This document shows positions 10,165-34,032 of a stretch of DNA of 64,000 nucleotides, in pieces. Under the pieces are notes generated by a model, which searched no databases, had not been told where the DNA came from, and saw only the letters and a list, made by a program, of their open reading frames with translations. The translations under genes were made by a program, and so were the position numbers. The DNA comes from Nemertoderma westbladi (Eukaryota > Animalia > Xenacoelomorpha). The stretch spans positions 142,707 to 206,706 of the forward strand of contig JAUCBJ010007728.1 of NCBI GenBank assembly GCA_032718475.1, read 5' to 3'. Numbering within the stretch: position 1 is the first letter of the stretch; every line of letters begins with the position of its first letter.

Positions 10165-13100
10165 CTATTTACTAATATTGGGTGGAGATTTGTAGTCTCC
10201 TGTCTCGTTTCTAGTCTCCTCAAGGAGCACGAGACGTTGTACAGGCCTATCTACGGTACGTCCGTCGATAGTCCTTACAGTAACTGTCCTCACTACACCA
10301 GATGTAGGGTGCGTGGTCAAAATGACTCCAGTCAGCCAAAAACGTCTTTTCAGATTTGCTTCAGCCAATAAAACATGGTCACCACGTCTTAAACATCGGG
10401 TATTTAGATACCAAGAGGTTCTGGTCGAAATAGAGGGCAAATAATATTTCTGCCATATTTCCCAGAATTTATTTGCAAGCAATTGAGTGATTTTCCAAGC
10501 CTTGTTGCCGTATCCGTCACTATCAACGGGTACCGAAATGGGCAACAATGTCGTCGGCGCCTGCATAAGCAGGTGCGCTGGTGTCAAGGCAAACTGTACG
10601 TCGTTATTGTCTGGGATCAAAGCGATCGGTCTAGTATTTAAGATTGCTTCGATTTCTATTAGTAACGTCGTCAGTTGGTCGTCTGTCAAGATGTGTTGCG
10701 TCGGTACGACTTTAGCCATAGCTGTCTTTATTGAGCCAATCAGCCTTTCCCAAACGCCGCCTCTCCACGGACTGTCTGGAGTATTGAAATACCAAACAAT
10801 ACGGTGAGGACGTAGTTCCTCGGAAATCTGGTTTTGGTCCAATTTTCTCAAAGCTCTGGTTATTTCGTTCCGTGCACCCACAAAGTTTGTCCCTTGGTCG
10901 CAGTAAATGGATTTGACCAATCCACGTCTAGCGATAAATCGCCGTAAGGCTAGGATAAAGGCATTGGTGGTCAAGTCTGTCACTCGCTCTATATGGACAG
11001 CTCTGCTGGCCATGCAAGTGAAGATCAATCCCCAACGTTTTACCTGTACCCTTCCGCGTTTCGCGATTATGGATCCCTGTCTCAGTGAAAGGGGGTCTAA
11101 ATGCCTGTAATCTCGCTAGTGGTAGTTCACTCATTTCTTGGTGTCCTATCTTCGCGTGCACCTTCTTACAAATAATACAGTTCCGTGTTACCGAACTCAG
11201 TGCCTTACTAGGTCTAATCAGTACAAACCTCGAGCGTAAGTGTGATAGACAGTGGTGTCTACCTACGTGTTTGAGTTGTACATATGCGTCCAGTATCATA
11301 GCGTGCTGTAATTCATGGTGTTGCGGTATGATGATAGGATACCTAAAGTCAAGTGCAAAGTCGATGTTTTGGAGTCTGGACTTGTGACAAAGTAAGCCCC
11401 GGTAAATAATCGGACTCCAACTCAAAATCGGTGAAGACTTAATCTGTTTACCTTGTTTGATCGCTGTGAATTCTCGTGTGAAATATCGCAATTGATAATG
11501 TCTAATGATATCAACTTCACAGTGGCCAATTTCCTTTAAGGTAAGTCTTCTAGGAAAGTCGCGTTTGCCTCTGGCATATTGTCTCAATCGTTTGAGCCAT
11601 GCTAACTTGCGGCACGCGTCAGTCCATGATCTAGTTAGGTTCACTATCCTGTCAACGTAAGTGTTAGTGACGTCATCAGGTATGGTGTAGTCGTAGTGTG
11701 GATACTTGTCTGGACTTGGTAGGCCCACGGGCCTTCCGGTAGGTTTGTCTGAGTCCCCAAGTACGTCAATCTCTACAGTCTTACCTTTACCGTCCGCACC
11801 TAATGTGTCGACTGGCAGTAACGGTTTCAACTCTACAGTGTCAGTGTGTTCCTGTGAGCCTGTAAGCTTCCTAACCTTAGTCACACGTTTACCTGTAGGT
11901 GGTAAGTCAAGTACCTTCTTTGAGCGGAGTGTAATCCCTGTGGCCACACCTTTGTCATCCAAAGAAGTCGAATTCGGTAAGTCTCTAAAAGTCCACTCCA
12001 ATGGGTCTTCTAATGGAGTGTCTAATAGACAGTCTGGTGAAGCGTCTGGTGAACAGTCTGGTGAGACGTCTGGTGAGACATAGCGCGGAACTTCCGGCGA
12101 AATGTCCTGTCGTTGGTCCCAAATTCTGTCTAGCGTAACTTCTGTCAGAAAGTCTGGTTCAAAGTCTGGTGGACAGTCTGTAGAGATGTCTGGTGGAAAG
12201 TCTGGTGAGACATCCGGTAGACATTCTGTCGAGAGTTCCATCAAACAATCTGGCGAACAATCCGGAGAACAATCTGGTGTCGCTTCTGGTGAATAGTCTG
12301 GCGAGTAATCTGGTGAACAATCCGGCGGAACGTCTGGTGAAATCTCCCGCGGAACATCCGGCAAAGGATTCGTACAAGCGTCTGGTCGAATGTCTGGTGA
12401 GACGTCTGGCGTAATGTCAGGTCTGGCGTCCAGGTCATCAGATTTCGTCCGTCCTTTTTTCCTCTTGACCTTGGCGTTGGCTTTCGCTTTAGACTTGACA
12501 ACCTTGTCGATTTTTATCTCGGCACCCTCTGGTATGGTGTTGGTTGTCGCGTCGAATAACGGTGGCCATTCGTCTGATGGTCGCTGTAGGAAATCGGGTC
12601 CTCTAAACCAAAAGGATTTATTGTCCGGTTTACAAAAGTCAAGCGGTTGCATCCCCCGTGACGCGATGTCAGCTGGGTTCAGCTTCCCTGGACAGTGACA
12701 CCAATCTTGTTTGAGCGACCGGTCTAGTATTTCAGCCCGTCTGTTGGCTACGAAAGTCTTGAACTCAAATGCTTCGTTGTTTATGTACCAAAGTACCAAT
12801 GTCGCATCCGTCCAATATGTGACCTTCAAGTTAGCCTCCAGCTCACGTTGAACTAGACTGACAATATCTGTGGATATCGTCCTGGCTTGCAGCTCCCCAC
12901 GAGGTACAGTCATATACTTCAATGGCATTGTTCTAGCCCTTGAAGTAACGAGAGATACATCGTAGCTGTCCGATGTCACTTGTCGTCTAAGGTATAAGGT
13001 AACCCCCAATCCATCCTTGCTAGCGTCACTAAAGCTGTGAAGCTCTAAATCGGCAGGAAAGGTGGTTTGTAAAGGAAAGTATACCCTCGGTATGGTATAG

Positions 13101-14698
13101 TCTTGTAGGAACGTCAGTTGGGCTTCCCAGTCCCTCCATCGCTCAGCTAACTTTTCTGGGATGGGGTCGTCCCATTCCAGTCCGGCTTGCCAAATGTTGC
13201 GGAGTATGATCCTAGCATGTAGGATCACTGGACTAATGAAACACAGTGGGTCATACAATCGACTCATGGTCGATAAGCAAGTCCTCTTAGTGAGAGGTCT
13301 AGTCTGGTCGTTGGACCTTACACGTACCCTAAAATTGTCGGTGTTAGGGTCCCAACTAAGTCCTAATACTTTGGTCGTCGGCAGAGGTTCTAAGTCTAAG
13401 TCCAAGTCACCTCCACTGCGATCCATCGGGTCAAATGAGTTCACCAGCTCGGGTTCGTTGGAAGCAAACTTCGTCAGGTGAAATCCGCCCTCAGCGAGAC
13501 AATCCTGGAGTTGGTGTGCTACGGTTGTAGCGTGCTCCAAGGTGTCACAACTCTTGAGGCCATCATCCACGTAGAAATCTCGTTCCACGGTCCGAACTAC
13601 TTCTGGCTCAAATTGGTCTCGTGTGTCTAATGCGGTCTGCTTTAATGCGTACATGGTGCAGTTGGGGCTGTCCCTGGCTCCGAATACTCTTACCTGCATT
13701 AGGTAAGTCTCTGGCGGAAGTTGTAAGTTTCCATCCGGATACCAAAGAAACCTCAAACTGTCCCTGTCCCGCTCCAAAGCCTTAACCTGGTGAAACATGG
13801 CCTCTACGTCACAGGTGAAAGCCACTTTGCGTTGTCTAAAACGCATTAGGACTCCCATGAGGTAATTGTTCATATTCGGCCCGTTCATCAGTTCGCTATT
13901 CATAGACATCCCTTGGTAAAGTGCAGCGCAGTCGTTGACTACACGCACCTTGCCAGGTTTGTCCGGGTGTCGAACAAAATGATGTGGCAGGTAATATGTC
14001 TGGTCTGTGGTTACCTCGGGATTTAACATCCTAATGGCGTATCCCTTTTGGAGATACGTCTGAAGTTGTGCATTGTATTGCATATGGGCCGTCTCGTCTC
14101 GCAACAATCGCTGCCTTATTGATTTGAGTCGCCTCAAAGCAAGCGGGTAATTGTTAACGAGCTTAGGTTGTCCATTGCGCCACAACATACCAACCTCATA
14201 GTGGCCATTCGCAGTCTGGCGAATGGTATCTCTCATAATATTTAATGACCGTTTTTCCTGTTCTGACATAGCGGTCTCGTAACCGGGTTCTGCTGAGTCC
14301 TGTTCCAACCATTGTATGGTCCGTTCAGTCAGCAGTCGGTCAAGCGCTGCTTGCACTGCGCCATGGTCCTCGTCCACGTCTTCGTCCGCTGCGGTGGCTA
14401 GTGTCAATGTGTCTGGTAGGCTCGCAAGCCTTCCGGTGTGACTAGTCGGCGTCGAATCGTCGTGCGGCTGTTTGACAACCTTTTGATCTGTCGGTAGGCT
14501 CGCAAGCCTTCCAAGATCAACGACCGGTGTCGAAGCCTGGTGGGTGGGGTCAATGACCTTCGGACTTTTCGGTAGTCTCGCAAGCCTTCCAAAATCCTCG
14601 TTCATCGAGTCATCCACGGCAACAACCCTTTGGTCTTCAGTAGTCAATACAACCTGGTCTACTGCATGTAGTTGTAAGTCAGAGGTCCGTGTGGTCAT
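10165..14698 (-). pseudogene. pol: pol of element A (RT, Pao-type RNase H, integrase), disrupted
   Basis: FYVDDG, HSFSDAS, CIIC, YCDQGTNF and GGVWERLI are present. A small deletion near 11070 removes the DCFG segment present in B (first integrase Asp) and shifts the frame. Confidence 0.92.
12030..12430 (-). repeat. 12-bp coding minisatellite (PDxS/PDxx repeats) between RNase H and integrase of A
   Basis: Repeated TCTGGTGA/CCAGAC units encode SPDY, SPDC and SPDV. A related tract lies in B at ~23620-23940. Confidence 0.85.
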
Positions 14699-14779
14699 GT
14701 CCAGATCGGTTACGTCAGTATCGGTGGCGTCTGCGTTAGTGACGCAAGTCTGTCGTAGTGCCGTCCATACAATTGGACA

Positions 14780-16374
14780 AGAATTTCAACTCATTTAAAT
14801 TGACCGCTACAAATTAATTGCATTTGTCTGTACCAATGAGACTGTAGTTATTTGATTGTAACCAATGTCGTGCAAGTTATATATTAGCTGGACCAATAGT
14901 TATCTTTAAAATCCTGTTAGAACCTATAGAACAATCGAGAATTTTCTCGATTGATTGCAGCACAAATTTGCTATATAAAGGTGCGATTTGTTCATTAGTT
15001 ATCAATCTTAATCTATCTCTCTATATTCAATTATTCTGAGTTATCTGATATTTGTTTATTCTGTTATTAGTATTCAGATTACATTTTGTATTATTATCTG
15101 CAATAAATTCAGAAATACCGCTATCTGCTTTTCTTTCACCATGATTCACTACGGTGAACAAACTTAAGAACAGGATGGCCGGCTAGAGATCGGGCCGCAG
15201 CAATGAACGGGAACATCAGGGGAATGTAGACAAGAGACAACCCGCAATACCATCTCAGTTATTCGCCCATCGCCTGAAAGGTTAGACAGCGTTCGACGCC
15301 TTGCTACCTAAGCGTAAGACCAAAGATCAAAAGGTAGAAGTAGTGACACGCTGTGAGCCTAAAATTACATCTTAGGGACTGTACTGTTTTAATTCAGGAA
15401 AACCACGGTAGACCTTCACATTCCTTTAACTCTTGCTAATCCCTTACTCATTAACTCTTGCTAAGTACAGGTGTGTGTGCGACTATTTGTAGTACGACAG
15501 TGTCCATTGCATTAGAACTTGTAGGCTAGGGGGGTTGCTGTGTTTTCACCTGAATTGGGATTGTACCATTCAGGCGGTAGGGCAGTTTACACTAGGCGCA
15601 AATAAATTGAGGCTATCAGGGATACTAACATCTACCGTGTCCCCGCCAACGCCCTAATAGGAAGTTACCCGGACTACCTGGGTGACTAAAATTCTAGATA
15701 GGAGCCAGGATAGCTATTAGTACCTGTACGCCTACAGTAGTAAACTAACACATCTCTTCTTAGTATCAGGGACCTGGTACCTAAAATTGCCGAATTCTGG
15801 GCGTAGCATTAACCCTATGCCTGAATTTGAGTCCTGGAAATACGCAAGAGGGGAAGGAACCTTATCATTCGTGAGTATTAGACCTACAAGTTACAAAATT
15901 AGAATATTCGTAAAATGCACACCGTACCCAGTAATTATATATGTGAAGGAGCAAAACTGTTTTGACCGTTCAGAATTAACACACGCGCGTTAGAAATTAT
16001 TTACACCTCAAAATATATAAAATTAACTTTGTCCGTACTGTGCTTTGCCCGCTAGTTAGACATCTCCAAATCTCTGCCTGTACCTAGCTAGCGTCTCTTC
16101 GCCCAACCATATAAATCACACCGCGGCAAAGTATACAAGCCCCTTAGTCCGTCAGTGAGTCAGCCTGATTTTAGGATTCGCTGCGCGGGATTTTGTTTTA
16201 TCGAAGTTTGTCTGCTCGTAGACTGTTTTCTGCCTCACCGGTTATAAGAGATCGATACTGCAATATATTCGCTTACTTAGAGTTTACTGTTTTGGTGAGA
16301 AGGTCGGATTTATGATTTGATTTACAAACTTTACAGTAGGATATTGCAGGTATTGTTACCGTCTCTTCCAATTA
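14780..16374 (+). repeat. 5' LTR segment of B (shared with 32344-34032)
   Basis: Near-identical direct repeat; the chance ORFs 15787-15993 and 33445-33651 differ at one residue. It starts abruptly at the junction with A. Confidence 0.9.
14833..14980 (+). promoter_or_regulatory. Putative LTR Pol II promoter (three CCAAT boxes and a TATA box)
   Basis: CCAAT near 14833, 14862 and 14893, TATATAAA at 14972, AATAAA near 15103. The same layout recurs in the 3' copy, and CCAAT plus TATA recur in A. Confidence 0.55.
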
Positions 16375-17184
16375 GTAGGAATATGTTTTACTGAACTACG
16401 GTTCGGTAGGACTAAAGTTATTTGAAAATTTTGTATTTTGAGGTAAAAATTTGTATTTGATTAGCTAAGTGCTAATTTTTTGAAATAAAATTTGATTTGA
16501 ATCGCGTGTAAAATATTTTTGGAATTGAATACCGGTGTTTAAAAGGGTTTAAATACCATATTGTACCGGTACAAAATTTTTCGTAAAAGTAAAACCTAAC
16601 TCTTTTGTTTTTTCAGGATTCAGAACTCATTTCTAGACTGTAACGGGAGCAAGACCGTGTTTAGCAAGTTTGGGAGATAGATAACTCAACAACTTTGGTT
16701 GAGAAAATCGTGTTTCGTCCGCAACGCTGAAAACGGAAAGGTTCACGTCCGGTTTGTATCTGGGAATCTGTTTTTCTGGAGAATTATTGGAGTGGGTGAG
16801 TTCGAAAAGTTGCATAAATAAGTTAGGCATTACCGTATTAGTTAAAATTATTGTGGGTTCCACTGTCTCAAGTATTTATGCATTCCGTATGATTTCTTTG
16901 TTCATTGCTGAATTAGTCCGTATTATTGTATTTAATTTACCTTTTGATAACGCATATCGTTATCCGATTTATTTGTTATAAAATTGGCCGTTAGGCTAAT
17001 TTTATTATATACTTATTCCGTGACATTTATTTGCTGTAAAATTGGCCGTTTAGGCTAATTTTATCCATCTGCTATAAAATCGGCCGGTAGGCTAATTTTA
17101 TAAGACTGTAATTAGTACCGTTTTATACAAATACGGTAAGTTCGATACTTTGACACTCACTTTACTTGACTTATAACTACCGAA

Positions 17185-20100
17185 ATGAGTGACAAACAAG
17201 ACTATACGAAAAATACACAAACCGACTATGACTCATGTGACGCGGATAAGTCAGCAGCGGAAGAACAACAGGGGAAGACTCGCGAGCCTACCGAACCTAC
17301 ACCGTGTGCGTCACCAGTACATCCAACGGGAGTACCGGATGCCGTAGTACGAGGCGACGGCAGGACCGAGGACTTTCTAACTGTTCCGCAACCTAGATAT
17401 AGGGAAACGGACATGGTAAGTTCAGCAGGAAGCACAGAAAGTGTGGTTAGAAGCGTCGGAGGTTACATGGCGCATATAACCAGGAGTATTGGAGAAGGCC
17501 AACGCATATTAGATGGGTTGACCGCTCCGATGTCTCGATTCGAGTTCTACACCCTCCAGGTTAGAGTACAGAGTAAAGTATATAAGTCCGTAGATAATCT
17601 AGTTGGCCTACAAGATCTAGCTAGACAGAGACAGGACATGGATACTCAACTTAGAATCCTCGAGAAACTAATGATCGCTAGAGAGAAACTGATTCAGTTT
17701 AAGTCGACGATTAGACACATACAACAGGAACAAGCGGACCAGTTGTTAGGTGAGTCAGTTTCGGACGAATTATTACAGCCCGAGGAAGAACAGGAACTGT
17801 ACCGACTGGATGGACAATTGAAACATCTAAAGGATCACTTACGTATGTGCGGCGAAGACGTCGGCGATTTGGAAACCATACCGGAATATACGAGGGACAC
17901 TTCACTCGTACGAATCGAATCGGCAACGGGAATATTGGATCAATCGTTGGTGAGTATTCGCAGCGAAATTGGCGAGGTGAGTATGGCTACGTCAGAAACT
18001 GCTCGACAACAGCAACTCTACAGACAACAACAGGAGATGGAGGAACAAGCTCAACTTCTAGTGATGCAGGCAGCAGCAGAAGAAGAGAAGCTACGCGTTG
18101 CGAATGTAGCGAGAATCTCTCATCTACAGGAACAAGCTGAATTAGAAGCAGCTGAAGTAGAAAGGTTAGAGGTAGACATTGCTCAACGAACAGCAGCGGC
18201 TGATTTAGCGCAACGAAACGCAGCGGCCGAACTAGAGCGACAAACGGCAGCGGCGGAATTAGAGCGACAAACGGCAGCAGCGGAATTAGAACGAGAACGG
18301 TTAGTTTCAGAAGCGCGGGCCGAAATGAAAACACGGCAAATAAAAGCTCAATCCGCTATACGACAAGCGGAGTTTGAGGCGCAACGACAACAAACGGAAC
18401 AAAGAGAGAAGACAGCTAAACTTCGTTTCGAACTCGAGAAGAAGGCGAGAGAATTAGCCAACGCCAAGGAAGATCTGGATCTACAAGCCCGTGATCGATC
18501 GATGAGATCTCGTGACGGACATGATTTGGACCAGTTGGAGGTAAGACATCGCCAAATTCAGTAACGAAAGAAGGAAGGAAGCGTAGGAGCACCCGGACGG
18601 GAACGACAATTAGTAAAGGACTTGTGTCAACGATTCCCACAGGTAACTCATATGTTTGCACCGGTTACGACTAAGGAACCTGTTTCGATTGCTGGTAGCG
18701 GTGATATCTCTCCTATCCATGGTGTGACGGAACACAGGTTTGTTATTCCGGACAAGTTTACACCGCCAAGAGCAACGTCGTCGCCTATTCCGAAAGTCAA
18801 GGTAAGTAACCCGCCGATTACGGATCGTAGTAGTTTATTGACCGGACCTGCACTACTGACGACTAAACAGGTGAGTCCACCTTTGACGCCTAAACCCGTT
18901 ACACACTACGCTTACCCAATGACGTTTCGACCTACAAGGCCAGTTGATTCAAATGCTGTCATTCGCCCACCGGTTCAGTTTACATCGCAATCTACGACTT
19001 CGAGGAAGACTTGTGAGCCTACCGAACAACGGAGAACAGTGGATACGCGACCGTTCAACCAATTTACATCGCAATCTACGACTTCGAGGAAGACTTGTGA
19101 GCCTACCGAACAACGGAGATCAGTGGACGATGTTCCGAAACGGAATGTTAGAATTCGTACGACGCAACGGACGCGAGCACGTCGACCACCATATCCAGAT
19201 GATAGTAGTACTTCGAGCGAATCGGATTACCCGAAACGCGAGGTATTTAGAACAGGGGCGGCCGATGAATATAAACGCGAGCGTTCAGACAACTCCTTTG
19301 CAGACAATCCTCCACAGAATACACCAACACAGAAGGCGTTACAACCAACGGACGCAATTAGTACACAACAGTTCGCCGACATTCTGCGACCAGTTGTCAA
19401 TAAGTTGGCTCAGATCGAGGAACGTCTGGAGGAAGGTTACACCGACAGTTCGAGAAATTCCGAATTCGAACACAATAGACACCCGAAGGAACCACAAAGA
19501 CCGGTACCTTCAAAACATACATCGTATCAGGGAAAAGCGCCAAGAAGGGAGAACATCAACCTGGTTACCAACCAAGGACGCGAAACTCTGAACGTTGCCG
19601 AGGAGATAGCGAAATTCGCAGCCAGACAGGGATTGCCGGTACAACAACCACCGAAGTTTTCCGGTAGCTCAAAACACTGGCATACTTTCGTAGACTATAT
19701 CGAATCCCAGATCGCCGTGTGCGCCTTTACATCACGGGAGAAGTTCAATTACCTGCTCCAAACGTTGTCAGGAGAACCTAAACGTTTGGCGGAGACTTTC
19801 GTCAGTGTACCGGACGCTTTCGAACTAGCGTACGATCGTTTAACTTCGATATACGGAGGTACAGTTAGTATGGCCAGGTCAGTAATAGAGGAACTCTGTA
19901 AGGGAGGGGCTATCACTAAACCCGTCGACTTATTAAAACTGGCCGACGAGATAAAAAACGCTATCACTACTTTAAGATCCATTGGACAACTTGATTACGG
20001 GAATACCCCTACAGTCCTATTAAAGATCATAGGACGACTCCACCATCGACTTCGTCGGGAGTGGAGAAAGGTCGAATACCAGCGAGAAGAGCGGGGAGGA

Positions 20101-23100
20101 TTCTTAAAATTAGAAGATGTGTACCTTTTAATATCCAGGGAGGCAGTAGTAGAAACTCGATCTAACTACACTGACCAGCACATCGTGGCAGAAGGGATCA
20201 CCTTGCCATCCTCCAACCGACAAAAACCCCAGACAACATCCACTAAGACGGCCACTTACACCACACCGACGGAATCACGACAATTCTCGGACGGTAGTAG
20301 GGTATCTGCGCCCATTGGGACAAAACAGACGAGACAACAACTCGGTACCGACTTCAGCGGCTGCCAATACTGCGAGCATCTAGGCAAGCGGTATATCGGT
20401 CACAAGTTGAGGGGTTGTCGACAATTTCGCGAGTTGAACTCGGAAGAACGACGGCTGCAAATACGGCCATTGGACTCTTGTTGGCGGTGTACGCGACACG
20501 GACACGTCCGTAAAGATTGCCCAAATACCGACACTTGTCCATCCTGTGGACGCAACCACGACGGTCTGCTCCACACAGACAGCCACACGCCGACAAAACG
20601 CTTCGCCAGGGAACACCCGGAAGCAGCAGCGAGATGTGATGCGGCCTACCGAAAACGAGAATCGAAAACGACTCCAACCTTCGTGACCCATATTGAGGAT
20701 TGCTTCTCAGAACAATCCGGATCGTCGGACGAAGAGTTAGAAGACGACGACGAATATTCCAATGGAGACGAACAACCGTCGATCGCGCTTCTGACTACTG
20801 ACCAACTGAAGGGATTCAGTGTAATTCCGATTAAGATTACTGGCACAAAGGGGAGCAAAAGAATCTACGCGATTCTAGATTCAGCCTCATCTCATAGCTA
20901 CGTGGATGAAAAGATAGCTGACGTAGTGACGGATCTTAAACAAGGTAAGCGCGTCAGTTATACCGTAAGTAGTATGCACGGACAGCGTGCAATACCAGTG
21001 ACACGAGTTAAGTTGGACTTAGACTCTCTTCTTCCAAAATCGCAACACAGCGAGAGGGAGAGGTCTTTGTTACCCTTTAAAGATCTAACCTTTGCGGCCA
21101 CGAAGGACTTTAGTAACCTACTAGGTCCAGTGCCGGAACAATCTCTAGAGGACCGTAAGTATTTCAGACACCTTGGTGTACCCGAATGTCCTGTCAATTA
21201 TAGATCGGTAGCAATGCTGATCGGGACGGACCAATTCAACCTACATCAGGTGTGGGAAACCAGACCATCGGCAGTCGTAGCGGGAAACGCATACGCCTGC
21301 AGAACGCCGATAGGGTGGTATACTCGAGCGCCTGTGCGCACACTAGACGTAAGTGACGAGGAAGACGATGTACAGAGTACATGTAGTTTATTAACTACAA
21401 ATTCAATTCATTCCTTTTCACACGACGTGAACCATACTACACTACAGTCGACAAAACATGACAGACGTGTAACTAGTATGATAAGTCACAAGGAGCAGCT
21501 AACCCACCAGGTGAGTTTAGAACTTGGGGAGAAGACGAGTCAGCTAGAGACTCCATCGACGACAGATGATAGGCTTGCGAGTCTACCTACCCCAATAACT
21601 TCAACAATGCCCGTCGAGATCGACGATGACGCGTTGAGAAATCATCAGTTGGAACAAGCTGTACTAGACAAAGAATTAACGGAGAAGACTATCAGGTGGT
21701 TAGAACAAGATACAGCTGAACCTGGTAGCTACGAACCTTGTATGTCGGAACAGGAGAAACAATCTCTGAAGATCATGGAAGATACTATCCGCCAGACGAA
21801 AGACGGACATTATGAGGTAGGGATGTTATGGCGTAGCCAAAGTCCTAAACTTATAAACAACTATCCACTAGCCTTGAGACGTCTACACTCAATACGGCAA
21901 CGTCTATTAAAGGACGAGAAAGCCCATCTGCAGTACAACACTCAGATGGAGACGTATTTGACAAAAGGATACGCTATCCGAATGACTAACCCGGAAATAG
22001 TGACTGACCAAACCTATTACTTGCCACATCACTATGTGAGACACCCCGACAAACCAGATAAAGTACGCGTAGTCAATGACTGTGCGGCTCTGTTTGAGGG
22101 AATGTCCCTCAATAGTGAGTTGATGGATGGACCAAACATGAATAATTATCTTATGGGGGTGATTATGCGCTTCCGTCAGCGTCAAGTAGCTTTTACTTGT
22201 GACGTTGAAGCGATGTTTCACCAAGTGAGAGCGTTAGAGCGAGACAGAGACAGTTTGCGGTTCCTCTGGTACCCGGAAGGAGACTTAAGTCTACCACCGG
22301 CGACTTACCAAATGCAAGTTCGCGTTTTCGGTGCCAGAGACAGCCCAAATTGCACGATGTACGCCCTAAAGCAGGCCGCTAGAGATCAGAAACATCTATA
22401 TGACCCAGAGATAATTAGGATTGTGGAGCGTGACTTTTATGTAGATGACGGTTTACAGAGTTGCGACACAGTAGAACGTGCTACAACAGTAGCACATCAA
22501 TTACGGGACTGCTTAGCGGGCGGAGGTTTTAACCTCACCAAATTCGCCTCAAACAGTGCCGAATTAGTAGACTCATTCGGGACGACTGAGCGTGGTGGTG
22601 GTGACATAGACCTAGAGTTCGAACCACTACCGACGACTAAGGTGTTGGAGCTCTTTTGGGACCCAAACACAGACAACTTTCGAGTGAAAGTGAGACTGGA
22701 CAGTCAAGAGAACACACTGACAAAGAGATCATGCTTGTCAAAATTGAGCCGATTGTTCGATCCGTTAGGATTCATCAGTCCAGTGATACTGCAAGCCCGC
22801 ATTTATATGCGCAGTATATGGAAGGATGGACTAACATGGGACGAGCCGATCTCATCAGACCAAGTGGACTTATGGAAGACCTGGGAGGCGGAATTATCTT
22901 CGCTAGAGGATTATTCCATACCCAGGGTTTACTTTCCATTACAAAGTACATTTCCTGACAACTTGGAACTACACTGTTTTTCTGACGCCAGTGACAACGG
23001 TTTTGGTGTGGCAGCGTACTTGCGCAGACAAGTAGAATCAGACGAGTTCGATGTTTCGCTCATTACTTCTAAGGCTAAGACCATGCCTACTAAGTATATG

Positions 23101-25844
23101 ACGACACCACGAGCCGAGCTACAAGCCGCAACCCTGTCAACCACCATCGTGAACCTCATACAGACAGAACTACAGTCGAGTTTACAGATATTTTATTGGA
23201 CTGACGCGACGTTGGTTTTATTTTACATAAACAACGACACACTCGAATTCAAGACATTCGTAGCTAACCGTCGCGCGGAAATTCTAGACCGTTCAATAAA
23301 AGAGGATTGGCGACATTGTCCCGGACCACAAAACCCAGCTGATATTGCGTCGCGAGGAATGATGCCTGAGGAATTCTGTAAACCGGAGAACAAAGAATTT
23401 TGGCAACACGGACCCCAATTCTTGCAGAAATCGACACAAGATTGGCCTCCGTTATACGACAACAAATCTAACACTATCCCTAAGGACGCCGAAATCAAGA
23501 AACCAAAAAAGGGGAAGACAAAGAAAAAGACGACGGCGGCAAAACTCAAGAAAAAACCGAAGGCGAAATGGAAAGATATAACTTCAAAGGTCAAGAGAGG
23601 AAGACTTGCGAGCCTTTCTACACCAGACATATCGCCAGACGGTCAACCAGACACGTTACTAGACGGTCAACCAGACGTTTTGCCAGACATATCACAAAAT
23701 GTTCTACCAGACACTAGTGACATACTGACAAACAGTAAAGCCGCAGTTTCCCTATTGGAGCGGCCTTCTATTGACAAACAACCAGATACGTTACCAGACG
23801 TATCGCCAGACACATTACTAGACAGTCGACTAGACATTTTGTCAGAAACATCACAAAATGTTCTACCGGACATTAGTAATGTATTGACTAACAATAAAGC
23901 CGCAGTTTCCCTATTGGAGCGGCCTTGTATTGACAAACTACCAAATTTGACACACTTGAGCAACCATAAGCACGGTGAAACCTCATGTATTACAGATGTG
24001 GGTAGTACCTACGCTAATGTAAATACAGGTGTTACTCTGCGCTCAAGAGACATACCGAACTTGCAACCTATGGTGAAACCTGGGATTAATATCGGCAGAA
24101 AAATAAGTTTACCGAAAGCCACTGATCCCACAGAGTTCAAACCACCATTAACGATCGACTTACAAAGTACCGACAATCAAGGTAAGAAGACAAAGAAGGA
24201 CAAATTACTTGTAGACCCGGACGGATCAACAGTCAACAAGGGATTACCTACCGGCGGACCCGTGGGCCCTTCTAGTAATTCAAAACCTTCCAAAATCTCC
24301 ATTGACTTACCTGATGACGTCACAAATACTTACGTCGACCGTATTGTAAACCTAACAGATTCTTGGACAAACGCTTGCCGAAAATTAGCGTGGATTGTAC
24401 GTTTTGTACAATACGTTAAAGGCAAACGTGACTTTACACGTCGACTTACATTGGCTGAGATTGACAGGTGTGAGATTAAATTAATTCGCCATTATCAACT
24501 GCGATATTTCGCGCGCGAATTCACATCCATAAATCAAGGTCAACCAATCAAGTCGTCACCAATACTGAGTTGGAGTCCGATTATTTATAATGGCTTGATT
24601 TGTCATAAATCTCGGCTTCAAAACATTGACTTTAACACAAACTTTAGGTACCCAATAATAATACCGCAACATCACGAACTACAACGTGCAATGATACTGG
24701 ACGCACATTTACATCTGAAACACGCTGGAAGACACCACTGTCTTTCCTACTTACGTACTAGATTTGTATTAATTAGACCCAGTAAAGCATTAAGTTCAGT
24801 GACACGTACGTGTATTATTTGTAAAAAGGTACATTCTTGAATAGGTACCCAAGAAATGAGTGAACTACCACAAGCACGACTTCAAGCATTCAGACCACCT
24901 TTTACAGAGACTGGAATTGATTGCTTTGGTCCCATACATACGAAACGTGGACGTATACTAGTAAAACGCTGGGGACTGATTTTCACATGTATGTCCAGTA
25001 GGGCAGTTCATAATGAACGTGTGATGGATCTTTCCACCAACGCGTTTATACTAGCATTGCGGCGATTTATCGCTAGACGCGGACTAGTGAAATGCTTGTA
25101 CTCAGACCAAGGGACAAACTTTGTTGGTGTTCGGAATGAGATTGCTAGAGCCTTTAAGAAATTAGATCATGATCAAATCTCGAACGAACTACAACCTCAT
25201 AAGATTGTTTGGAAGTTTAATCCTCCAGATAGTCCATGGAGAGGCGGAGTCTGGGAGAGATTGATTAGATCTATCAAGACAGCCATGGCAAAAGTCATTC
25301 CAGTAAACCACATACTGACAGACGACCAACTGACAACACTGTTTGTTGAAATCGAGGCAATACTAAATACTAGACCAATAGTATTAGTACCCGATGACAA
25401 ACAATCTCAATTCGCTTTGACACCGGCACACCTGCTAATGCAGGCACCGACACCACTTTGACGCCGATTTCTATTCCAATAGAAAGCGACAGCTACGGTA
25501 GAAAAGCGTGGAAAATCACGCAACTACTGGCTAACAAATTCTGGGAAATATGGCAAAACCATTATTTGCCCTCTATTTCTGCCAGAACAAACTGGTACAA
25601 TAACACCCGCGCATTAAAGCCGGGAGATCACGTGCTGTTAGCGGAAGTGAATCTAAAAAGACGCTTCTGGATAACAGGTGTAATTTTAGCCACACATCCA
25701 TCCATGGATGGAGTGACAAGAACTGTGACGGTACGGACAATTGACGGTCGTACAGTAGACAGACCGACTCAACGTCTCGTACTTCTTGAAGAGACTCGTA
25801 ACGAGTCTGGAGACTACAAATCTCCACCTAATACTAGTAAATAA
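17185..25844 (+). pseudogene. gag-pol: gag-pol of element B (~2880 aa reconstructed): coiled-coil N-terminus, Pao gag, zinc knuckles, protease, RT, RNase H, integrase
   Basis: PKFSG..W..F..EKFNYL, CWRCTRHGHVRKDC, ILDSAS, FYVDDG, FSDAS, H..H..CIIC, IDCFGP, SDQGTNF and GGVWER. Lesions are in-frame stops at 18562-18564 and 24838-24840 and a frameshift near 25455. Confidence 0.93.
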
Positions 25845-25947
25845 TTAGGAGTTTACAAATAGATTTCCACGTACCTGTACACCGTAGTAAGGACAGCGGT
25901 AGAATTCCATTGTCTTTATATGTGAACATTGAGGGTAGTACCCTTAT

Positions 25948-26991
25948 TAGGGTAGGTCGATTTTTACTTTTTTTGGATATCTAGATTTTCTCATTGATAA
26001 AAAGTGGCCTTGGGTCCTAAAACTTTGTAGAAACGAAATTTTAACTCCTAAAAATCATGTTTGACCCCTGCACTGGACGTCGTCCAGTTCCCGCCCTAGC
26101 CGCTAGTGAGTCATTTTCCCAATTATTGTGATGATCAACTTCTAGTATTCCTACCGCATTGATATTATGCTCATTAGAACCGCAATGACCGATTTAGTTG
26201 GTGTAGACACCTTCAAAACAAGCATAGAGCGAGTAGTTTTTGAGATATTGCAGAATATGTGAAGTCCGGTACAAGTCAACATTAGCGCCTTGATGCGGTA
26301 TTGACAAATACACTAAAAATGATACTTCTAATTATCTCAAGGCATCCACAATTTACACATAACTGCAGTGATCAATTTAGGGGATGTTGAAACTCTAATA
26401 ATATGAGTTCAGTGATTAGTTCTCGAGTTATTGTACAAAACGTCTGGATTGAGTCAGCTCAATATAAGGTCATTAATTGGTGGACATAACCTTGACATTT
26501 TGTACAATAACTCGAAAACTAATCACTCAATTAATATTTTTAGAGTGTCAACATCCCCTAAATTGATCATTGCAGTTATGTGGGAATTGTGGTTGCCTTG
26601 AGAAAATTAGAATTATAATTTTTAGTGTATTTGTCAATACCGCATCAAGGCGCTAATGTTGACTTGTACCGGACTTCACAAATTCTGCAATATCTTAAAA
26701 AACTACTCGCTCTATGCTTGTTTTGAAGGTGTCTACACCAACTAAATCGGTCATTGCGGTTCTAATGAGCATAATATCAATGCGGTAGGAATACTAGAAG
26801 TTGATCATCACAATAATTGGGAAAATGACTCACTAGCGGCTAGGGCAGGAACTGGACGACGTCCAGTGCAGGGGTCAAACATGATTTTTAGGAGTTAAAA
26901 TTTCGTTTCTACAAAGTTTTAGGACCCAAGGCCACTTTTTATCAATGAGAAAATCTAGATATCCAAAAAAAGTAAAAATCGACCCACCCTA
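25948..26991. mobile_element. Non-autonomous hAT-type palindromic (foldback) MITE, 1044 bp
   Basis: Termini TAGGG...CCCTA and an 8-bp TSD ACCCTTAT (25940-25947, 26992-26999). Near-perfect inverted arms of ~495 bp surround a ~50-bp spacer. The empty site is visible in element A near 10010. Confidence 0.92.
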
Positions 26992-27312
26992 ACCCTTATG
27001 TGTCACATAGGAGCGGGATTTGTAGGTATAAGAAATGGAATTCTACTTGGAACTCACAATATTTAGACAATCCATTTGGATTTGAAAAATTTTTAAAAAA
27101 AAAAAATTTTCTCCAGTGAATAGATTTCAGGGTCCAGTCGGGTGGAACTTAAAATTAGAGAAACAAGAGAGGAAGACTTGCGAGCCTTTCTTAAAATTTT
27201 AATTAAATTTTACACGGTCTTGTTTCAATAAGTTACGTCAAAATAGACTCCCCTATATATTTATTACTAATTCTTGACTGCTTATTTTCTGATAATAGTT
27301 TGGGATCAAAAA

Positions 27313-27520
27313 GTGAGTATTTTAGACTCACAGCCAGTTTAGCCCAAATTCGTTTTTACTTCGGCAAAAAAAAAATTTTAGATAAGAAGCAGCGTGTCAT
27401 TAAAGAAACCCTAGATCTTAGGCTATGGGTAGGAGGTTAGAGCGTTGTCGAGCCCAAAGGGCAGACGAAACTCTCACGTCTCCTCACAACTAACTACAAA
27501 CTCTGTTGTATTCCCTCTAG
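27313..27520 (+). promoter_or_regulatory. Putative intron upstream of ORF3 in B (counterpart in A at 9473-9669, minus)
   Basis: Donor GTGAGTATTTTAGACTC, branch-like CTAAC, pyrimidine tract and TCTAG acceptor are conserved in both elements. Confidence 0.6.
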
Positions 27521-27550
27521 TAGTAATGATTATGTAACTACACCCTAATT

Positions 27551-30500
27551 ATGGAGAAAGGGATACAAGGAGAGCCGAGATGGGGATATGATATCCAAGA
27601 GGAGGCAGCAGCGCCATTCGAAAGATTTGGAGCCAAGGACTACACTATATTTGGTATAAAGGAATTATCGGAAAGTACAGCGAAACTCGCGAGAACTAAA
27701 TATGACTCGAACGTATTAAAGAGAAGGCAAAACGCATTAAACGAAAGAATCGAAAGTTTGCGCCAAACCTTCAACGAACTTTACCCGTACGATGCTTTGT
27801 GTGATACGGGAGACATTAGCGAAGACCCCGATACTGAAATTAGTCGTTTGTATCATACCATGCAATACCTAAAGGCGCACGAACCTATGCCCGTGGTACG
27901 CGATGAATTTGAAGGAATGCATCTTTACAGACGAACTCGAGGGGACGATAGATAAACCAAGGAAGCATTTTCAGTTTATAAACTTTATTATCAATGCGGT
28001 TCTTGTATGCGCGAACAACGAAATGCGATCCCGATGCGTTTGAATAAGGAAAATCCCGAACCGATATTGGCGAGGTGTTCGAATCATCAACAACTACGCT
28101 ACCAGGAAGGAGGGTATCCTTTATCGAATCCATATCATTCATTTGCTATGACCGGACCAAAGGCGGGAGAAACTGTCATTTACCCACCTAAGGTTGTTGA
28201 ACCCGATGTATTTGAACTTACGCTGGACGAGGCGAATCAGTCAACCCGCGAAAAGAAAGAAGCTCTTAGCCTATACAGAGCCTACAAGGCTTTCGAGAAA
28301 GGTGAGATGGAAGAATGGGGTGGAAGACTCGCGAGCCTACCTTGCCATTGGACGTCACACGATCAAACTTCAGCTAAGGAGATGACACCGGAAGTTTTCG
28401 AGAGCATAAACTTTGCTCAAAACGTTATTCAGAGACTACAGATTGCATCCCCGGAGAGGCCAAGAGAAATGCAACCGTATAGTACTTCAACTACGAAACC
28501 ATTGAGTACGACACTCAATTTCCCTATTAGTATACCAGTCCGACAGGATACGACGTACGAAATACCCATCGTGGATCATCCAGAAATCATTTCAAACTTG
28601 GAGTTTCTTCCTGCAGTTGTTTTCAGCGATATGAGTAAGATATATGATTTACGTAGACATATTACTCAAAAGGTCGTGTACAACGTTCCACCTCATATTC
28701 AAGATTTCAAGGAACTGGATAGAGCTGGTGCCGATATAGCTCCGAGTAATCTGAAAGGATATCTAACCAAGACGATTCGTTTATGGATTGGAACCGGAAC
28801 CTTCGAGTCGGATACAGATATTGCCGCAGATTGGCGAGGTAAGGTTATTCGTTTCGATGAGGATAAGGATATAGAGAAGATTTGGCAACCTTCGGAAGAA
28901 TTGTTGGATGAATGGAATAGGACGTTTAGATCGTTTCAGGAAAACGGTTACATGTTTTACGATAACGAGGGCGGCAGTCATCAGCAGAGTTTGACTTCTA
29001 AGACTATACAGATTAGAGCGGCGGACGGAGTCCTGCACGTTTTCAGTAGACAGAGGAGCGACAAACGAATGCCGATACCTCCAGCGAATACAAAGCGACA
29101 CCATCTTATCACCGATATAGTAAAGAAGATGGACCAAGCTTGTAATATTGACGCTAGAATGCTACCGAAGATGGTAAGAAACATGATTTTAGATAAAACT
29201 GTTGTAAAGGTTGGATCAGGAGTAAGGGAGGATTTAATTAGCGACTTCGCCGGCATGACGGACAGCGATGACCGACTACCGACACCTTACGTCGACACTC
29301 GACCTCTTATTCTGTGGTCTATAGAACAGGGATATTTTCGTGAGTATAATACTCAGAAGACTGGAACTGGATACATTTCCTACCTGTTATTCAATTGGGA
29401 TTATAAGGAAGGTAAGAGAAACAAGTATATTGAAACTTATGGAGAAGGTGATACTCCAGATATGAGTGAGTTTGAATCACAGCTTAAATGGAGAGGATGC
29501 GTGTATTGGGCTATTACGTCACCTCCAAGAGCGGTCTTACAATATTATTTAGCAATAGAGTCGTCAGTGAATGTTTGCCTAATCGCCGACATTGTGTCTC
29601 GGACTCTCAAAAGACATCCACTTTGTCTCGGAGAAGATCATACGTTCTACATGGAAGGGAGAATTCGTACCGACGTGTTTAGACGATTCCTTGAACCCTT
29701 CTACAACTCCGACGCTCAGTGTAATGCCTTTACTCGAGCAGGATTTAGTATATTTCGAGACGTGTATCTTCGCTGTGCGGGATCTCTTATCGAAAGACCA
29801 TCTATGTTTACATTGTTACCCTATGAAGGAGAACGTATCGTGGAAATTACGGATGAATCACGGCAGACGCGCGCGCCTATCGGTCACCTTGGTGATGAAT
29901 TCGAAGTAACTACTACGATCGCCGACGATCCTTTAGAGGAACTTCTTGAGATAGAAAGGAACCTCCCGAAGAAATCTCAGACGGAGATTCGACAACTTGA
30001 AGCAACAGATGCTATAGTTTGTATACAACCTTCAGAAACCTACCAACCCATAGACCCAGATGATTACGATTATAGTATGGGAGGAAGCGCTCGACCGATT
30101 GGAGATCTTATATACGAACGAGTGTGGTACCCTGCCAATACGATGTGTAGTAAATGTGGCGTCGCTGGACATCATATGGCAAAGTGCAGTGGAAAGCACA
30201 TTACTACGACTCAGCTAATCTGTGGATGGTGTGGGGATCAAGGGTCTCATACCTTTTATACTTGCTGGAGATTTATGGCTCAATGTACTTATTGCAATAT
30301 AAAGGGACATCGAGCATCTGAATGCCAACTAAGAGACATACCTTATGAACACGAATCTGTAAAACTCGTGAGGAAATTATTTGATGAGTGGGAAGATTTA
30401 GCCGACGAACATGTATCGGCACAAAGAAGACGGTTTCCGATGAGAGCGCATCTCGGATTTTGGGCGGTAAATCCCCAAACGATGATGTCGGAAGGATATA

Positions 30501-31276
30501 TCTCCGCTATGCCCCAATATGACGAACTTATCGAGGTTGTCGATATTTTGCCCCACGACAGCGGATTCCGAGTGGTGCGCGAGTATCTACTACAGATTCA
30601 CCCGGATAACAAAAACACGTGGAATTTTCAGAAAGTCGTTAATCGGATTACGTATGGTGAATTCGATCGTTTCCGAACTGAAAAGCGGAACAAGGGAGCT
30701 TGGTTAACCGTCGCATGGGCGTACCGAGCCGCGTTTTACCACAAACGTATACGAGCGAGCGTATTCGAGGAAGAGGAGGTCCTAGAGGCGACGAATATAC
30801 CAGCCACTCCGGTTGCGCCGTCTGCACGTCACCCTCGGGAGGACGGGCAGGGTAGGATCATACGGGTCCAGAAAGTGGGCCAACAATTAAAGAAAATTAT
30901 TAATGTAGAAGAACGCAAGGGAGTTGAGCCGACCATTCGAGTTACTCGGGATACGGTATCACTTCCAAGAGAACCAGTAGGAGGATCGGGACATACACCA
31001 GCTGATCAACAGGGGGCGCAAGCCACTCTTGGGTCTGCGTCGTCCGCCTTTCGCGCGTTCCCAGACGTTCTACCAACTGTAGTGACGACTGATCGGTCAC
31101 GAGGAATCGGTCGAGGTTTTGGGATGCCAAATAGACGAATTTGCGAGGAAATAGTCGCACCGTCTCTCAACGTCCCAAGTAAACCAGTGACTCGCCCCAT
31201 TAGTCCCATATCGCGAGCAAAGTCACCTGTGCGCAGTTTTCGAGGACGCGGCAGGGCTCGATCCACTAAGCGATAA
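27551..31276 (+). pseudogene. ORF3 of element B: DEDD-type 3'-5' exonuclease-like domain plus three zinc knuckles (1241 codons, one premature stop)
   Basis: 27551-27955 and 28007-31276 are in frame, separated by a single TAA (E in A). Exonuclease-like motifs lie at ~28940-29600. Knuckles CSKCGVAGHHMAKC, CGWCGDQGSHTFYTC and CTYCNIKGHRASEC lie at ~30146-30325. The C-terminus is RG-rich. Confidence 0.82.
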
Positions 31277-31354
31277 AAGGGAGGGCAAGGGTGGACGGAA
31301 GACTCGTGAGCATTTCTTATGATTTTGTGATTTATTTGAATTTATATTTATATT

Positions 31355-31900
31355 TGTGCTTATTCCGAACTTATGCAATTTGTATTGTTCCGAATTTATG
31401 AAATTTAGAAATAAGAACTTATATTTTAGTAAAACTTATATTTAGTAAGACTTATATTTGTAAGAATTTATATTTTATATTTACGTGATTATTTCGAACT
31501 TATGCAATTTATATTATTCCGAACTTATGCAATTTATATTGTTCCGAATATTATGCAATTTATATCTTATAAGCAGTATTTGTATTTACAGTGAAACAGA
31601 AAGTAAGAGTAGATGGAAGACTCGTGGGCCTTTCTTATAGTTTTATTTGTAAAGTGTTATATTTTGTATTTAGAAAGTTTTATAGTCAGAAAATTTTGTG
31701 CTTAGAAAGACTCATATTTGTAATTATTCCAAACTTATGCAATCTACATTTAGGTACGAAAGTATTTGTAATTACTTGAATTTATGCAATATTTGAGATG
31801 CAATAGTAGATGGAAGACTCGCGAGCCTTTCTTATTGTTTTCATTTATTTGTATTTGTAATTGTTTGAATTTATGCAATATTGAGATGCAATAGATTTAT
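31355..31900 (+). repeat. AT-rich short tandem repeats in the 3' UTR of B
   Basis: Multiple TTCCGAACTTATGCAATTTATATT-like units interleaved with copies of the 20-nt palindromic motif. Confidence 0.75.
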
Positions 31901-32252: not shown

Positions 32253-32339
32253 GGTTCAGTAGCTCAGTCGGTAGAGCGTTGGAAATTATATGTGTAGTAG
32301 GTATTGAGTTCGAATCCTAGTAAGTGCGAATTATTTTTT
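32253..32339 (+). ncRNA. tRNA-derived/Pol III promoter-like unit in the terminal region of element B
   Basis: A box TAGCTCAGTCGGTAGAGCG, B box GAGTTCGAATCC (32306-32317) and a T6 terminator-like run at 32334-32339. Confidence 0.6.
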
Positions 32340-32343
32340 GTAC

Positions 32344-34032
32344 AGAATTTCAACTCATTTGAATTAACCGCTACAAATTAATTGCATTTGTCTGTACCAA
32401 TGAGACTGTAGTTATTTGATTGTAACCAATGTCGTGCAAGTTATATATTAGCTGGACCAATAGCTATCTTTAAAACCCTGTTAGAACCTATAGAACGATC
32501 GAGAATTTTCTCGATTGATTGCAGCACAAATTTGCTATATAAAGGTGCGATTTGTTCATTAGTTATATATCTACTTACAACAATCTATTATATTAATATT
32601 CACATCTATTCTGTCGTGCTTAGTTTATTTCAGATTACATTGTACATATTATTATAATCTTTTGTAATAAAAGTTAGAAATACTTGTCAATCTCAGCCCT
32701 TTTCTATCTGTTTTACCATGGATTCACTACGGTGAACAAACTTAGGGACAGGATGGCCGGCTAGAGATCGGGCCGCAGCAATGAACGGGAACATCACGGG
32801 AATGTAGACGAGAGACAACCCGCAATACCATCTAGAGTTATTCGCCCATCGCCTGAAAGGTTAGACAGCGTTCGACGCCTTGCTACCTAAGTATAAGACC
32901 AAAGATCAAAAGGTAGACGTAGTGACACGCTGTAAGCCTAAAATTACATCATAGGGACTGTACTGTCTTGATTCAGGAAAAACCGCAGTAGACCTTCATA
33001 TTCCTACGGGGGGGAGGGAGAGAGAGCAGGCAGATACTAGTACGCAGATAGGACGTAGGCACACCGGTACAAGGCATACAATTGGTTAGGGTGCAGCAAA
33101 CTGTACGCTTAACTCTTGCTAAGTACAGGTGTGTGTGCGACTATTTGTAGTACGACAGTGTCCATTGCATTAGAACTTGTAGGCTAGGGGGGTTGCTGTG
33201 TTTTCACCTGAATTGGGATTGTACCGTTCAGGCGGTAGGGCAGTTTACACTAGGCGCAAATAAATTGAGGCTATCAGGGATACTAACATCTACCGTGTCC
33301 CCGCCAACGCCCTAATAGGAAGTTACCCGGACTACCTGGGTGACTAAAATTCTAGATAGGAGCCAGGATAGCTATTAGTACCTGTACGCCTACAGTAGTA
33401 AACTAACACATCTCTTCTTAGTATCAGGGACCTGGTACCTAAAATTGCCGAATTCTGGGCGTAGCATTAACCCTATGCCTGAATTTGAGTCCTGGAAATA
33501 CGCAAGAGGGGAAGGAACCTTATCATTCGTGAGTATTGGACCTACAAGTTACAAAATTAGAATATTCGTAAAATGCACACCGTACCCAGTAATTATATAT
33601 GTGAAGGAGCAAAACTGTTTTGACCGTTCAGAATTAACACACGCGCGTTAGAAATTATTTACACCTCAAAATATATAAAATTAACTTTGTCCGTACTGTG
33701 CTTTGCCCGCTAGTTAGACATCTCCAAATCTCTGCCTGTACCTAGCTAGCGTCTCTTCGCCCAACCATATAAATCACACCGCGGCAAAGTATACGAGCCC
33801 CTTAGTCCGTCAGTGAGTCAGCCTGATTTTAGGATTCGCTGCGCGGGATTTTGTTTTATCGAAGTTTGTCTGCTCGTAGACTGTTTTCTGCCTCACCGGT
33901 TATAAGAGATCGATACTGCAATATATTCGCTTACTTAGAGTTTACTGTTTTGGTGAGAAGGTCGGATTTATGATTTGATTTACAAACTTTACAGTAGGAT
34001 ATTGCAGGTATTGTTACCGTCTCTTCCAATTA
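32344..34032 (+). repeat. 3' LTR segment of B, truncated at the satellite junction
   Basis: Direct repeat of 14780-16374. It ends CCAATTA|ATCTCAGC with no terminal CA. Confidence 0.9.

Follow-up and report, generated by a model that had tools for sequence, protein, structure and literature searches.

A third gene with a putative DEDDy-type exonuclease domain and zinc knuckles in large BEL/Pao retrotransposons of Nemertoderma westbladi

What does a BEL/Pao retrotransposon do with a long third gene that does not look like env? This question is raised by a 64,000-nucleotide stretch of the xenacoelomorph Nemertoderma westbladi (assembly GCA_032718475.1, contig JAUCBJ010007728.1, positions 142,707 to 206,706 of the forward strand; referred to below, at its full length, as the window), in which two elements, A and B, lie head-to-head, set in a 416-bp satellite, and share a long open reading frame (ORF3) between integrase and the 3′ long terminal repeat (LTR). 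A first-pass annotation of this DNA, made from the letters alone, took the ORF3 product for a captured nuclease or RNA-binding effector. Here we report that ORF3 is kept by purifying selection, strong both between and within families, and that its central domain very probably adopts the DnaQ/DEDDy exonuclease fold, as predicted by several lines of comparison.

ORF3 and its conservation

A and B are large BEL/Pao retrotransposons. This group assignment, on which the annotation was right, comes from the Pfam domains DUF1759, Peptidase_A17, Integrase_H2C2 and DUF5641 in the BEL-type order protease, reverse transcriptase (RT), RNase H, integrase; pol also has a YVDD motif. Element B (plus strand, about 14780-34032) is laid out as LTR, leader, gag-pol, spacer, ORF3, 3′ untranslated region (UTR) and LTR, and measures 19,257 bp; discounting a palindromic insertion leaves 18,205 bp, in agreement with the genome of about 18 kb given before. 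Element A (minus strand, about 14785-3147) retains part of pol, ORF3 and the 3′ LTR only.

A frame of about 1,240 residues between integrase and 3′ LTR had been ascribed to both elements. It is present in B and has a homolog in A, with the correction that A lies on the minus strand and that both copies are broken, B by one stop (codon 135) and A by one stop and one frameshift (Table 1). The stop in B is private to that copy, another letter being found in all covering depth in the public runs X1, X2 and X4 (X5 gave no depth over this position), and the part of B ORF3 that encodes the nuclease-like domain and the knuckles is naturally unbroken. Public runs hold many copies of the ORF3-bearing family.

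The two proteins align, as claimed, along nearly their whole length, with 67% identity over 1222 aligned codons. The proportions of nonsynonymous and synonymous differences (pN 0.218, pS 0.776) place the bootstrap upper bound of omega at 0.08, the ratio being given only as an upper bound because synonymous sites are saturated; the selection check suggested for A and B came out on the side of constraint. Identity amounts to 78% in the exonuclease-like domain and 80% in the knuckles, compared with 73% in RT-RNase H and 46% in the tail, and pN/pS is 0.147/0.887 for the exonuclease-like domain versus 0.167/0.826 for RT-RNase H. Within the family, 23 of 29 differences in ORF3 (31 rows minus one outside the frame and the frame break itself) are synonymous, versus 33% expected for transitions (P 4e-7). 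The statement that the flanking non-coding DNA is mostly unalignable holds for the 3′ UTR and LTRs, which barely exceed the shuffled level, but not for the pol-ORF3 spacer, which aligns at 63-65% (E 8e-32; score 430 versus at most 158 in 10 shuffles).

An env identity for ORF3 was considered and rejected, in line with the annotation: the highest 19-residue hydropathy (1.38 in B, 1.48 in A) does not reach transmembrane level, the N-terminus is polar, and the furin site R-x-K/R-R was not found in B ORF3. The other parts described earlier fared unevenly. The N-terminal CxxC..CxxH motif, a putative zinc site, is present and kept in A. Three knuckles are found at the expected place, the middle one having the spacing C-x2-C-x5-H-x4-C and the Pfam match to zf-CCHC staying below cut-off (E 0.019). 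The tail called RG-rich has only four RG dipeptides after residue 1100.

The central domain

The motifs quoted as exonuclease-like are all present and stand in the stated order in B ORF3 (FYDNEG at residue 469, TIQIRA at 485, LPKMVR at 538, YVDTRPL at 580 and YYLAIE at 665). Beyond motif order, four lines of weak-to-moderate strength agree on a DnaQ/DEDDy fold, as the annotation had proposed. The first is a distant homolog. An exhaustive search over 1.84 billion representatives returned three matches, two of them via the knuckles only, the informative one being a 558-residue protein, P0002, located on one 7460-bp ENA contig, which matches the ORF3 central domain at E 1.5e-5. Its parts follow the same order as those of ORF3: DTE, KxGSxxRxD and YLRGD, then three knuckle-like motifs, then a block that matches the one after the ORF3 knuckles. 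For the Atlas model of P0002 (overall confidence, pLDDT, 0.44), PF01612-bearing clusters occupy 10 of 10 structure rows, the best at a structural similarity (TM score) of 0.73 over 199 residues of a 210-residue exonuclease, all ten rows falling under the Atlas bar for naming a family. The top Atlas feature match of P0002, to be taken as a lead only, is a Euglenozoan cluster combining PF01612 with CCHC (0.87).

The second line is provided by language-model features, for which B residues score 0.92-0.93; one of the clusters matched, at 0.92, carries PF01612 and has 163 features in common with B (true members typically share 170). The third is a profile-profile match, in which hhalign compared the profile of A, B and P0002 with one from 65 bacterial PF01612 domains (probability 50.5, E 1.6e-4, 118 columns), spanning ExoI through ExoII and the helices that follow; none of 30 block shuffles scored as high and the reversed profile gave E 0.1, while the three sub-groups taken singly gave probabilities of 1.7-20.8 only, versus 50.5 pooled. 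The fourth is the NCBIfam search, in which the sole family returned was DnaQ (E 0.035).

At the level of residues, an alignment of 47 rows (44 bacterial PF01612 members plus A, B and P0002) shows no change at D471, E473, Q487, K553 and D561, the DxE of ExoI and the Asp of ExoII being in register with the PF01612 members. At ExoIII, Y666-x3-E670 aligns with the YLRGD of P0002, so that the YxxxE register chosen in the first-pass annotation fits this homolog.

A number of observations weigh against an exonuclease. ORF3 had no exonuclease match in Pfam or PDB sequence searches, and with E allowed to rise to 10, PF01612 matched neither A nor B nor P0002. The hhalign match stops short of ExoIII, where the MAFFT register against the bacterial rows shifts between two runs and where, in both A and B, Glu replaces Asp. 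AlphaFold run on the three natural homologs (A, B and P0002) reached a pLDDT of 29. Adding the 44 bacterial PF01612 rows raised it to 70, and the guided model was matched to DnaQ-type chains with Z of 8-11.6 and root-mean-square deviations of 3.4-5.1 (Klenow exonuclease, RNase D, WRN, Nibbler, TbRND, EXD1 and Egalitarian) and, by Foldseek, to EXD2 (E 2e-4, TM 0.33). Since this model was built on bacterial PF01612 rows, these matches are largely circular and speak for compatibility, not as an independent proof. Egalitarian keeps all five DEDDy residues, and their mutation is without effect on its function, hence conserved residues do not prove catalysis. Finally, forms with out-of-frame deletions that remove the exonuclease (27690/29723 and 27710/29835) occur in X1, X2 and X4; these are probably non-autonomous derivatives.

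Word-index protein searches found no relatives apart from P0002, DNA-pattern scans of metagenome and viral contigs gave no confirmed locus, tblastn of P0002 gave nothing useful in plasmids or phages, and the A5 profile run over 301 bacterial genomes produced weak short matches only (best E 0.007). Overall, we consider it somewhat probable that the ORF3 domain is catalytically active.

Expression, a dispersed RNA motif and possible roles

How the protein would be made is suggested by one contig of run X4, in which a joint 16795/27521 skips 10,725 nt that start with GT and end with AG, the donor standing in the context GG/GTGAGT and the acceptor lying 30 nt 5′ of the B ORF3 ATG. The ORF3 protein is likely translated from a separate RNA from which splicing has removed gag-pol, a subgenomic pattern of the env type. 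A very short upstream frame ending in ATG-TAA lies between acceptor and ORF3 start in both elements (27521-27550 in B; 9431-9475, minus strand, in A).

A peptide, GRLASL, recurs in pol and in ORF3. The repeat behind it is one of nucleic acid, as it falls in two different reading frames and also outside coding DNA, and it takes the form of a near-palindrome around a YGYG loop (Table 1). A strand-symmetric scan blind to the loop found 18 sites in A and B at no more than 3 mismatches of 14, compared with a mean of 0.6 and a maximum of 3 in 60 simulated sequences; the 18 sites are not independent, because the template was taken from them and because they include several tandem or orthologous copies. 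All 18 carry the YGYG loop on the sense strand (UGCG in 8, which makes it the commonest, CGCG in 5, CGUG in 3 and UGUG in 2) and none has the mirror form; six are non-coding. Outside A and B, two sites were found at the same threshold, with other loops, and a third BEL/Pao element in the 56000-64000 part of the window has no YGYG motif at 3 mismatches or fewer. Counting G-U wobbles, 90.5% of cells pair, but two-sided change is confined to one of seven stem pairs and 10 of the 18 rows leave one pair open, so that support for the motif forming an RNA stem is weak. In Rous sarcoma virus a retroviral CCHC knuckle binds a UGCG tetraloop (PMC8833184).

The role that we favour, tentatively and with confidence that falls somewhat short of an even balance, is that of an RNA-directed 3′-5′ exonuclease countering small-RNA silencing. 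The spliced message would yield a DEDDy-type 3′-5′ exoribonuclease with three acidic residues intact and Glu as the fourth, joined to three zinc knuckles. By analogy with the RNase D of Trypanosoma brucei (TbRND), the knuckles would bind RNA, possibly the YGYG hairpins of the element itself, and the nuclease would trim or degrade host small RNAs aimed at the element, thereby protecting element RNA; PIWI-interacting RNAs (piRNAs) or small interfering RNAs (siRNAs) would be the targets. Among the fold relatives, Nibbler/Mut-7 and EXD1 work in small-RNA pathways. The preference is based on this background, recorded also for EXD1 and mut-7 in PMC5408684, on the likeness to TbRND, whose C-terminal CCHC fingers raise RNA binding and cleavage and are needed for efficient guide-RNA trimming (PMC7797062), and on the immune evasion exerted by the arenavirus exonuclease ExoN (PMC7968707).

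The list of objections is extended here by the splice joint, which comes from one of four runs, has a short side of 29 letters and stems from a run guessed to be DNA, and which a retrocopy would also explain, and by the Gag knuckles, which could bind the hairpins instead. A more specific form of the proposal, in which the knuckles dock on the approximately 19 YGYG hairpins and so tether an exonuclease that destroys piRNA or siRNA guides engaged there, as an addressed counter-silencing system acting at the RNA level, appears quite unlikely. VANDAL/VANC is an anti-silencing system of plants, and the addressed version, if true, would be its animal, RNA-based counterpart.

The same hairpins may be read without catalysis. 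Comparable to Egalitarian, Rev or the CERV protein of the nematode element Cer1, ORF3 could be an RNA-binding adaptor that holds the hairpins and so exports, localises or protects the unspliced genomic RNA, nuclease activity being incidental. The Glu at ExoIII in both families and the excess of oriented motifs would fit, as would two precedents: the DEDDy domain of Egalitarian binds stem-loops with its catalytic residues dispensable (bioRxiv 10.1101/2025.08.03.668247), and Cer1 depends on CERV, whose mRNA is spliced, for the export of its genomic RNA (PMC10309623). On the other hand, the acidic residues of ExoI and ExoII are retained despite saturated divergence, P0002 carries a canonical YxxxD, and the imperfect stems noted above do not help. 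Moreover, 5 of the 11 motifs of B also fall inside the predicted spliced RNA, so that they do not mark the unspliced one. We regard the adaptor as possible, although rather unlikely.

Slightly less probable still would be an active exonuclease directed at the element's own nucleic acid, trimming an RNA self-primer to the duplex edge or polishing 3′ ends of RNA or complementary DNA (cDNA). In its favor, the 11 nt that follow the 5′ LTR of B complement the LTR itself, pairing without mismatch with a stretch of the 3′ LTR (Table 1); the 11-mer was found in 2 of 5000 shuffled LTRs, and with such a complementarity the 3′ end of the primer must arise by cutting or trimming. For the DEDDy ORF3s of rotifer elements, 3′-end processing of element RNA has been proposed (PMC5408684). 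However, the primer of Tf1 is made by the RNase H of RT, and the ORF3 protein, coming from a separate message, would have no built-in route into the particle. The complementary stretch at 32997-33007 lies in an initiator-like context as a candidate Tf1-like self-priming site, and its copy in the 5′ LTR (15417) is altered, beside a deletion of about 72 nt.

Proofreading of reverse transcription in support of an 18-kb genome, in the manner of nidovirus ExoN, appears improbable, and it is the weakest of the roles listed in the first-pass annotation because ORF3 apparently has a spliced message to itself, separate from Gag-Pol. Genome size does invite the idea, with 18.2 kb in B without its insertion as opposed to 4.2-10 kb in Belpaoviridae, as nidoviruses of at least 20 kb carry ExoN with a proofreading function (PMC7968707), and the proofreading domains of family-A polymerases head the (circular) fold list. 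Nevertheless, ORF3 is not fused to pol, its knuckle layout resembles that of an RNA-trimming RNase D, and much larger LTR elements have been described for which the accessible accounts do not name such a domain. Least probable of all is a chance likeness of motif order in an unrelated protein, or a passenger that brings the element no benefit: the negative or weak direct searches against curated exonuclease models and the failed unguided fold prediction would suit it, but several partly independent lines meet on PF01612 and the purifying selection is strong.

The elements in the window and comparison with known systems

Table 1. Coordinates in the window of ORF3, its parts and the elements that carry it
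Feature	Position	Strand	Basis or remark
B ORF3, 1241 codons	27551..31276	+	between integrase and 3′ repeat; in-frame stop 27953-27955
A ORF3	5676..9430 (reads 9430->5676)	-	stop 6872-6874; one-base frameshift near 6735
Putative zinc site CxxC-x23-CxxH (residue 149)	27995..28087	+	also in A
B exonuclease-like domain	28895..29620	+	DnaQ/DEDDy fold predicted by several lines
A exonuclease-like domain	7364..8092	-	78% identical to that of B
Three CCHC-type zinc knuckles (residues 866, 891, 912)	30146..30325	+	80% identical to A
Basic tail, poorly conserved, two short RG motifs	31100..31273	+	sequence
Donor GTGAGT of predicted ORF3 subgenomic RNA	16796..16801	+	joint in 1 contig of run X4
Acceptor: branch-like CTAAC, pyrimidine tract, TAG	27490..27520	+	joint; sequence; similar site 5′ of A ORF3
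20-nt near-palindrome GG.AG(A/G)CT-YGYG-AGCCT.CC, n=19	5643..31831	sense strand of each element	dispersed through A and B
YGYG motifs in A	5643, 7094, 8643, 9793, 11718, 14415, 14493, 14571	- (sense)	
YGYG motifs in B	17273, 19004, 19088, 21568, 23599, 27171, 28322, 29862, 31297, 31615, 31812	+ (sense)	
B 5′ LTR-like repeat, ~1.6 kb	14780..16374	+	self-BLAST against 3′ repeat; adjoins truncated pol of A
Candidate self-priming site, 11 nt directly 3′ of 5′ LTR	16375..16385	+	complementary to 32997-33007
B gag-pol (BEL/Pao), split into several frames	17185..25820	+	DUF1759 E 3e-11, Peptidase_A17 E 2e-42, Integrase_H2C2
Palindromic insertion, ~1.05 kb	25939..26992	.	inverted repeats; 8-bp flanking duplication
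B 3′ LTR-like repeat, ~1.7 kb	32337..34032	+	start approximate; end abuts 416-bp satellite
A pol, 5′-truncated (RT, RNase H, integrase)	10165..14785	-	Peptidase_A17 E 4e-40, DUF5641 E 7e-19
A 3′ LTR-like region	3147..5200	-	start approximate; ends CA against satellite

The insertion in B is a near-perfect palindrome, MITE- or foldback-like (resembling a miniature inverted-repeat transposable element), and is absent from other copies, as shown by a joint skipping it in four of four public runs. The two LTRs of B are unevenly alike by self-BLAST, being 99.7% identical over the last 924 bp (15451-16374 versus 33109-34032) and 87% over the first 650 bp (14780-15425 versus 32344-33005), which suggests recombination or gene conversion. 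Around B no target-site duplication was recognisable, and 5′ of the apparent start of its 3′ LTR no purine tract was seen. The LTRs end in TA in B and in CA in A. Stretches resembling tRNA, with A-box- and B-box-like motifs seen by eye (about 5214-5310, minus strand, and 32245-32325, plus strand), sit just 5′ of the 3′ LTR in A and B, in the place expected for a polypurine tract; neither ARAGORN nor Rfam called them. Long linkers of PDxSPD-type repeats separate RNase H from integrase in both elements.

The satellite counts more than 50 units, at 2394-3146 and 34033-55981, and the ends of A and B both abut it. The third, distant element at 56000-64000 shows a gag-protease part about 30% identical to B and a long leader, its 3′ half lying beyond the window. 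The gag regions of the BEL elements (17185-18564 and 59380-61668) have long N-terminal extensions with apparent coiled-coil and low-complexity repeats and no Pfam match. At 1-2041 (minus strand) lies a gag-protease-RT fragment with a zinc knuckle, by eye apparently of Ty3/gypsy type.

Compared with Belpaoviridae as described, whose genomes span 4.2-10 kb, whose LTRs span 0.2-1.2 kb and whose only third gene is env (PMC8742986), A and B share the gag-pol with its domain order, the BEL-specific Pfam domains and the LTRs, and differ in size (18-19 kb, with LTRs of 1.6-1.7 kb), in the non-env third gene and in the LTR-complementary 11-mer at the primer site. Where an 18-nt tRNA primer-binding site is expected of the group, the sequence after the 5′ LTR of B does not begin with TGG. 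While B lies outside the range for genome and LTR size, that range is descriptive, and membership by pol stands.

The PF01612 proteins EXD2, WRN, Nibbler (Mut-7), EXD1 and Egalitarian resemble ORF3 in motif order and predicted fold. They differ from it by the insertions of about 25-35 residues that ORF3 has after the third strand and before ExoIII and by its Glu at ExoIII, and orthology of ORF3 to any of them was not detectable. TbRND (PMC7797062; PDB 7c42) comes close in architecture, CCHC zinc fingers coming after its DEDDy domain; unlike ORF3, it is a cellular enzyme of about 350-380 residues, has four fingers and keeps the canonical active site, and its sequence similarity to ORF3 is not significant (7c42, E 0.88, through the knuckles). 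Another parallel is CERV, an accessory protein that Cer1, an LTR element of the animal Caenorhabditis elegans, expresses through mRNA splicing; the accessible text does not describe it as a nuclease (PMC10309623).

The annotation did not know such cargo as standard in BEL/Pao elements. The accessible text of PMC3118150 and PMC2774666 contains the word exonuclease 0 times. No exonuclease in BEL/Pao was found reported in a search that covered neither subscription papers nor repeat databases and part of which likely misses the spelling "BEL/Pao". A nematode Cer-type element is said to have once been described with an extra RNase D-like domain, which, if right, would lower the novelty of the BEL/Pao ORF3.

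Juno and Vesta of bdelloid rotifers are Ty3/gypsy-type elements. A DEDDy exonuclease as ORF3 of LTR retrotransposons is already known from them: RNase D-like DEDDy ORF3s, with DEDD changed to DEED, were described in Juno, Vesta and Terminons, with the same candidate roles (Rodriguez, Kenefick and Arkhipova 2017, PMC5408684), an account repeated in later reviews (PMC6431247, PMC6338049, PMC5718144). As far as these descriptions go, Juno, Vesta and Athena share with our elements a DEDDy-type ORF3 3′ of pol that lacks a transmembrane segment and has one catalytic Asp changed to Glu. In contrast, the rotifer proteins show strong homology to cellular DEDDy enzymes and the signature DEED, whereas the BEL/Pao ORF3 escapes Pfam and reads DEDE; its 1241-residue multidomain build, its three knuckles and its measured selection likewise set it apart by the descriptions. 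New here are the BEL/Pao host, the 18-kb element and a protein that joins a putative nuclease to knuckles, reads DEDE and goes unrecognised by family models, together with the constraint measured on it, the splice joint seen in a public run and a YGYG motif of fixed orientation. Exonuclease cargo of LTR retrotransposons has been a rotifer curiosity since 2017; here a deeply diverged exonuclease-knuckle gene stands at RT-level constraint in BEL/Pao elements about twice the described size, and its unbroken nuclease-knuckle part, with the YGYG hairpin as a candidate RNA target, makes its role directly testable. A transposon-encoded nuclease for small RNAs, if true, would give the element a direct weapon in its arms race with piRNAs.

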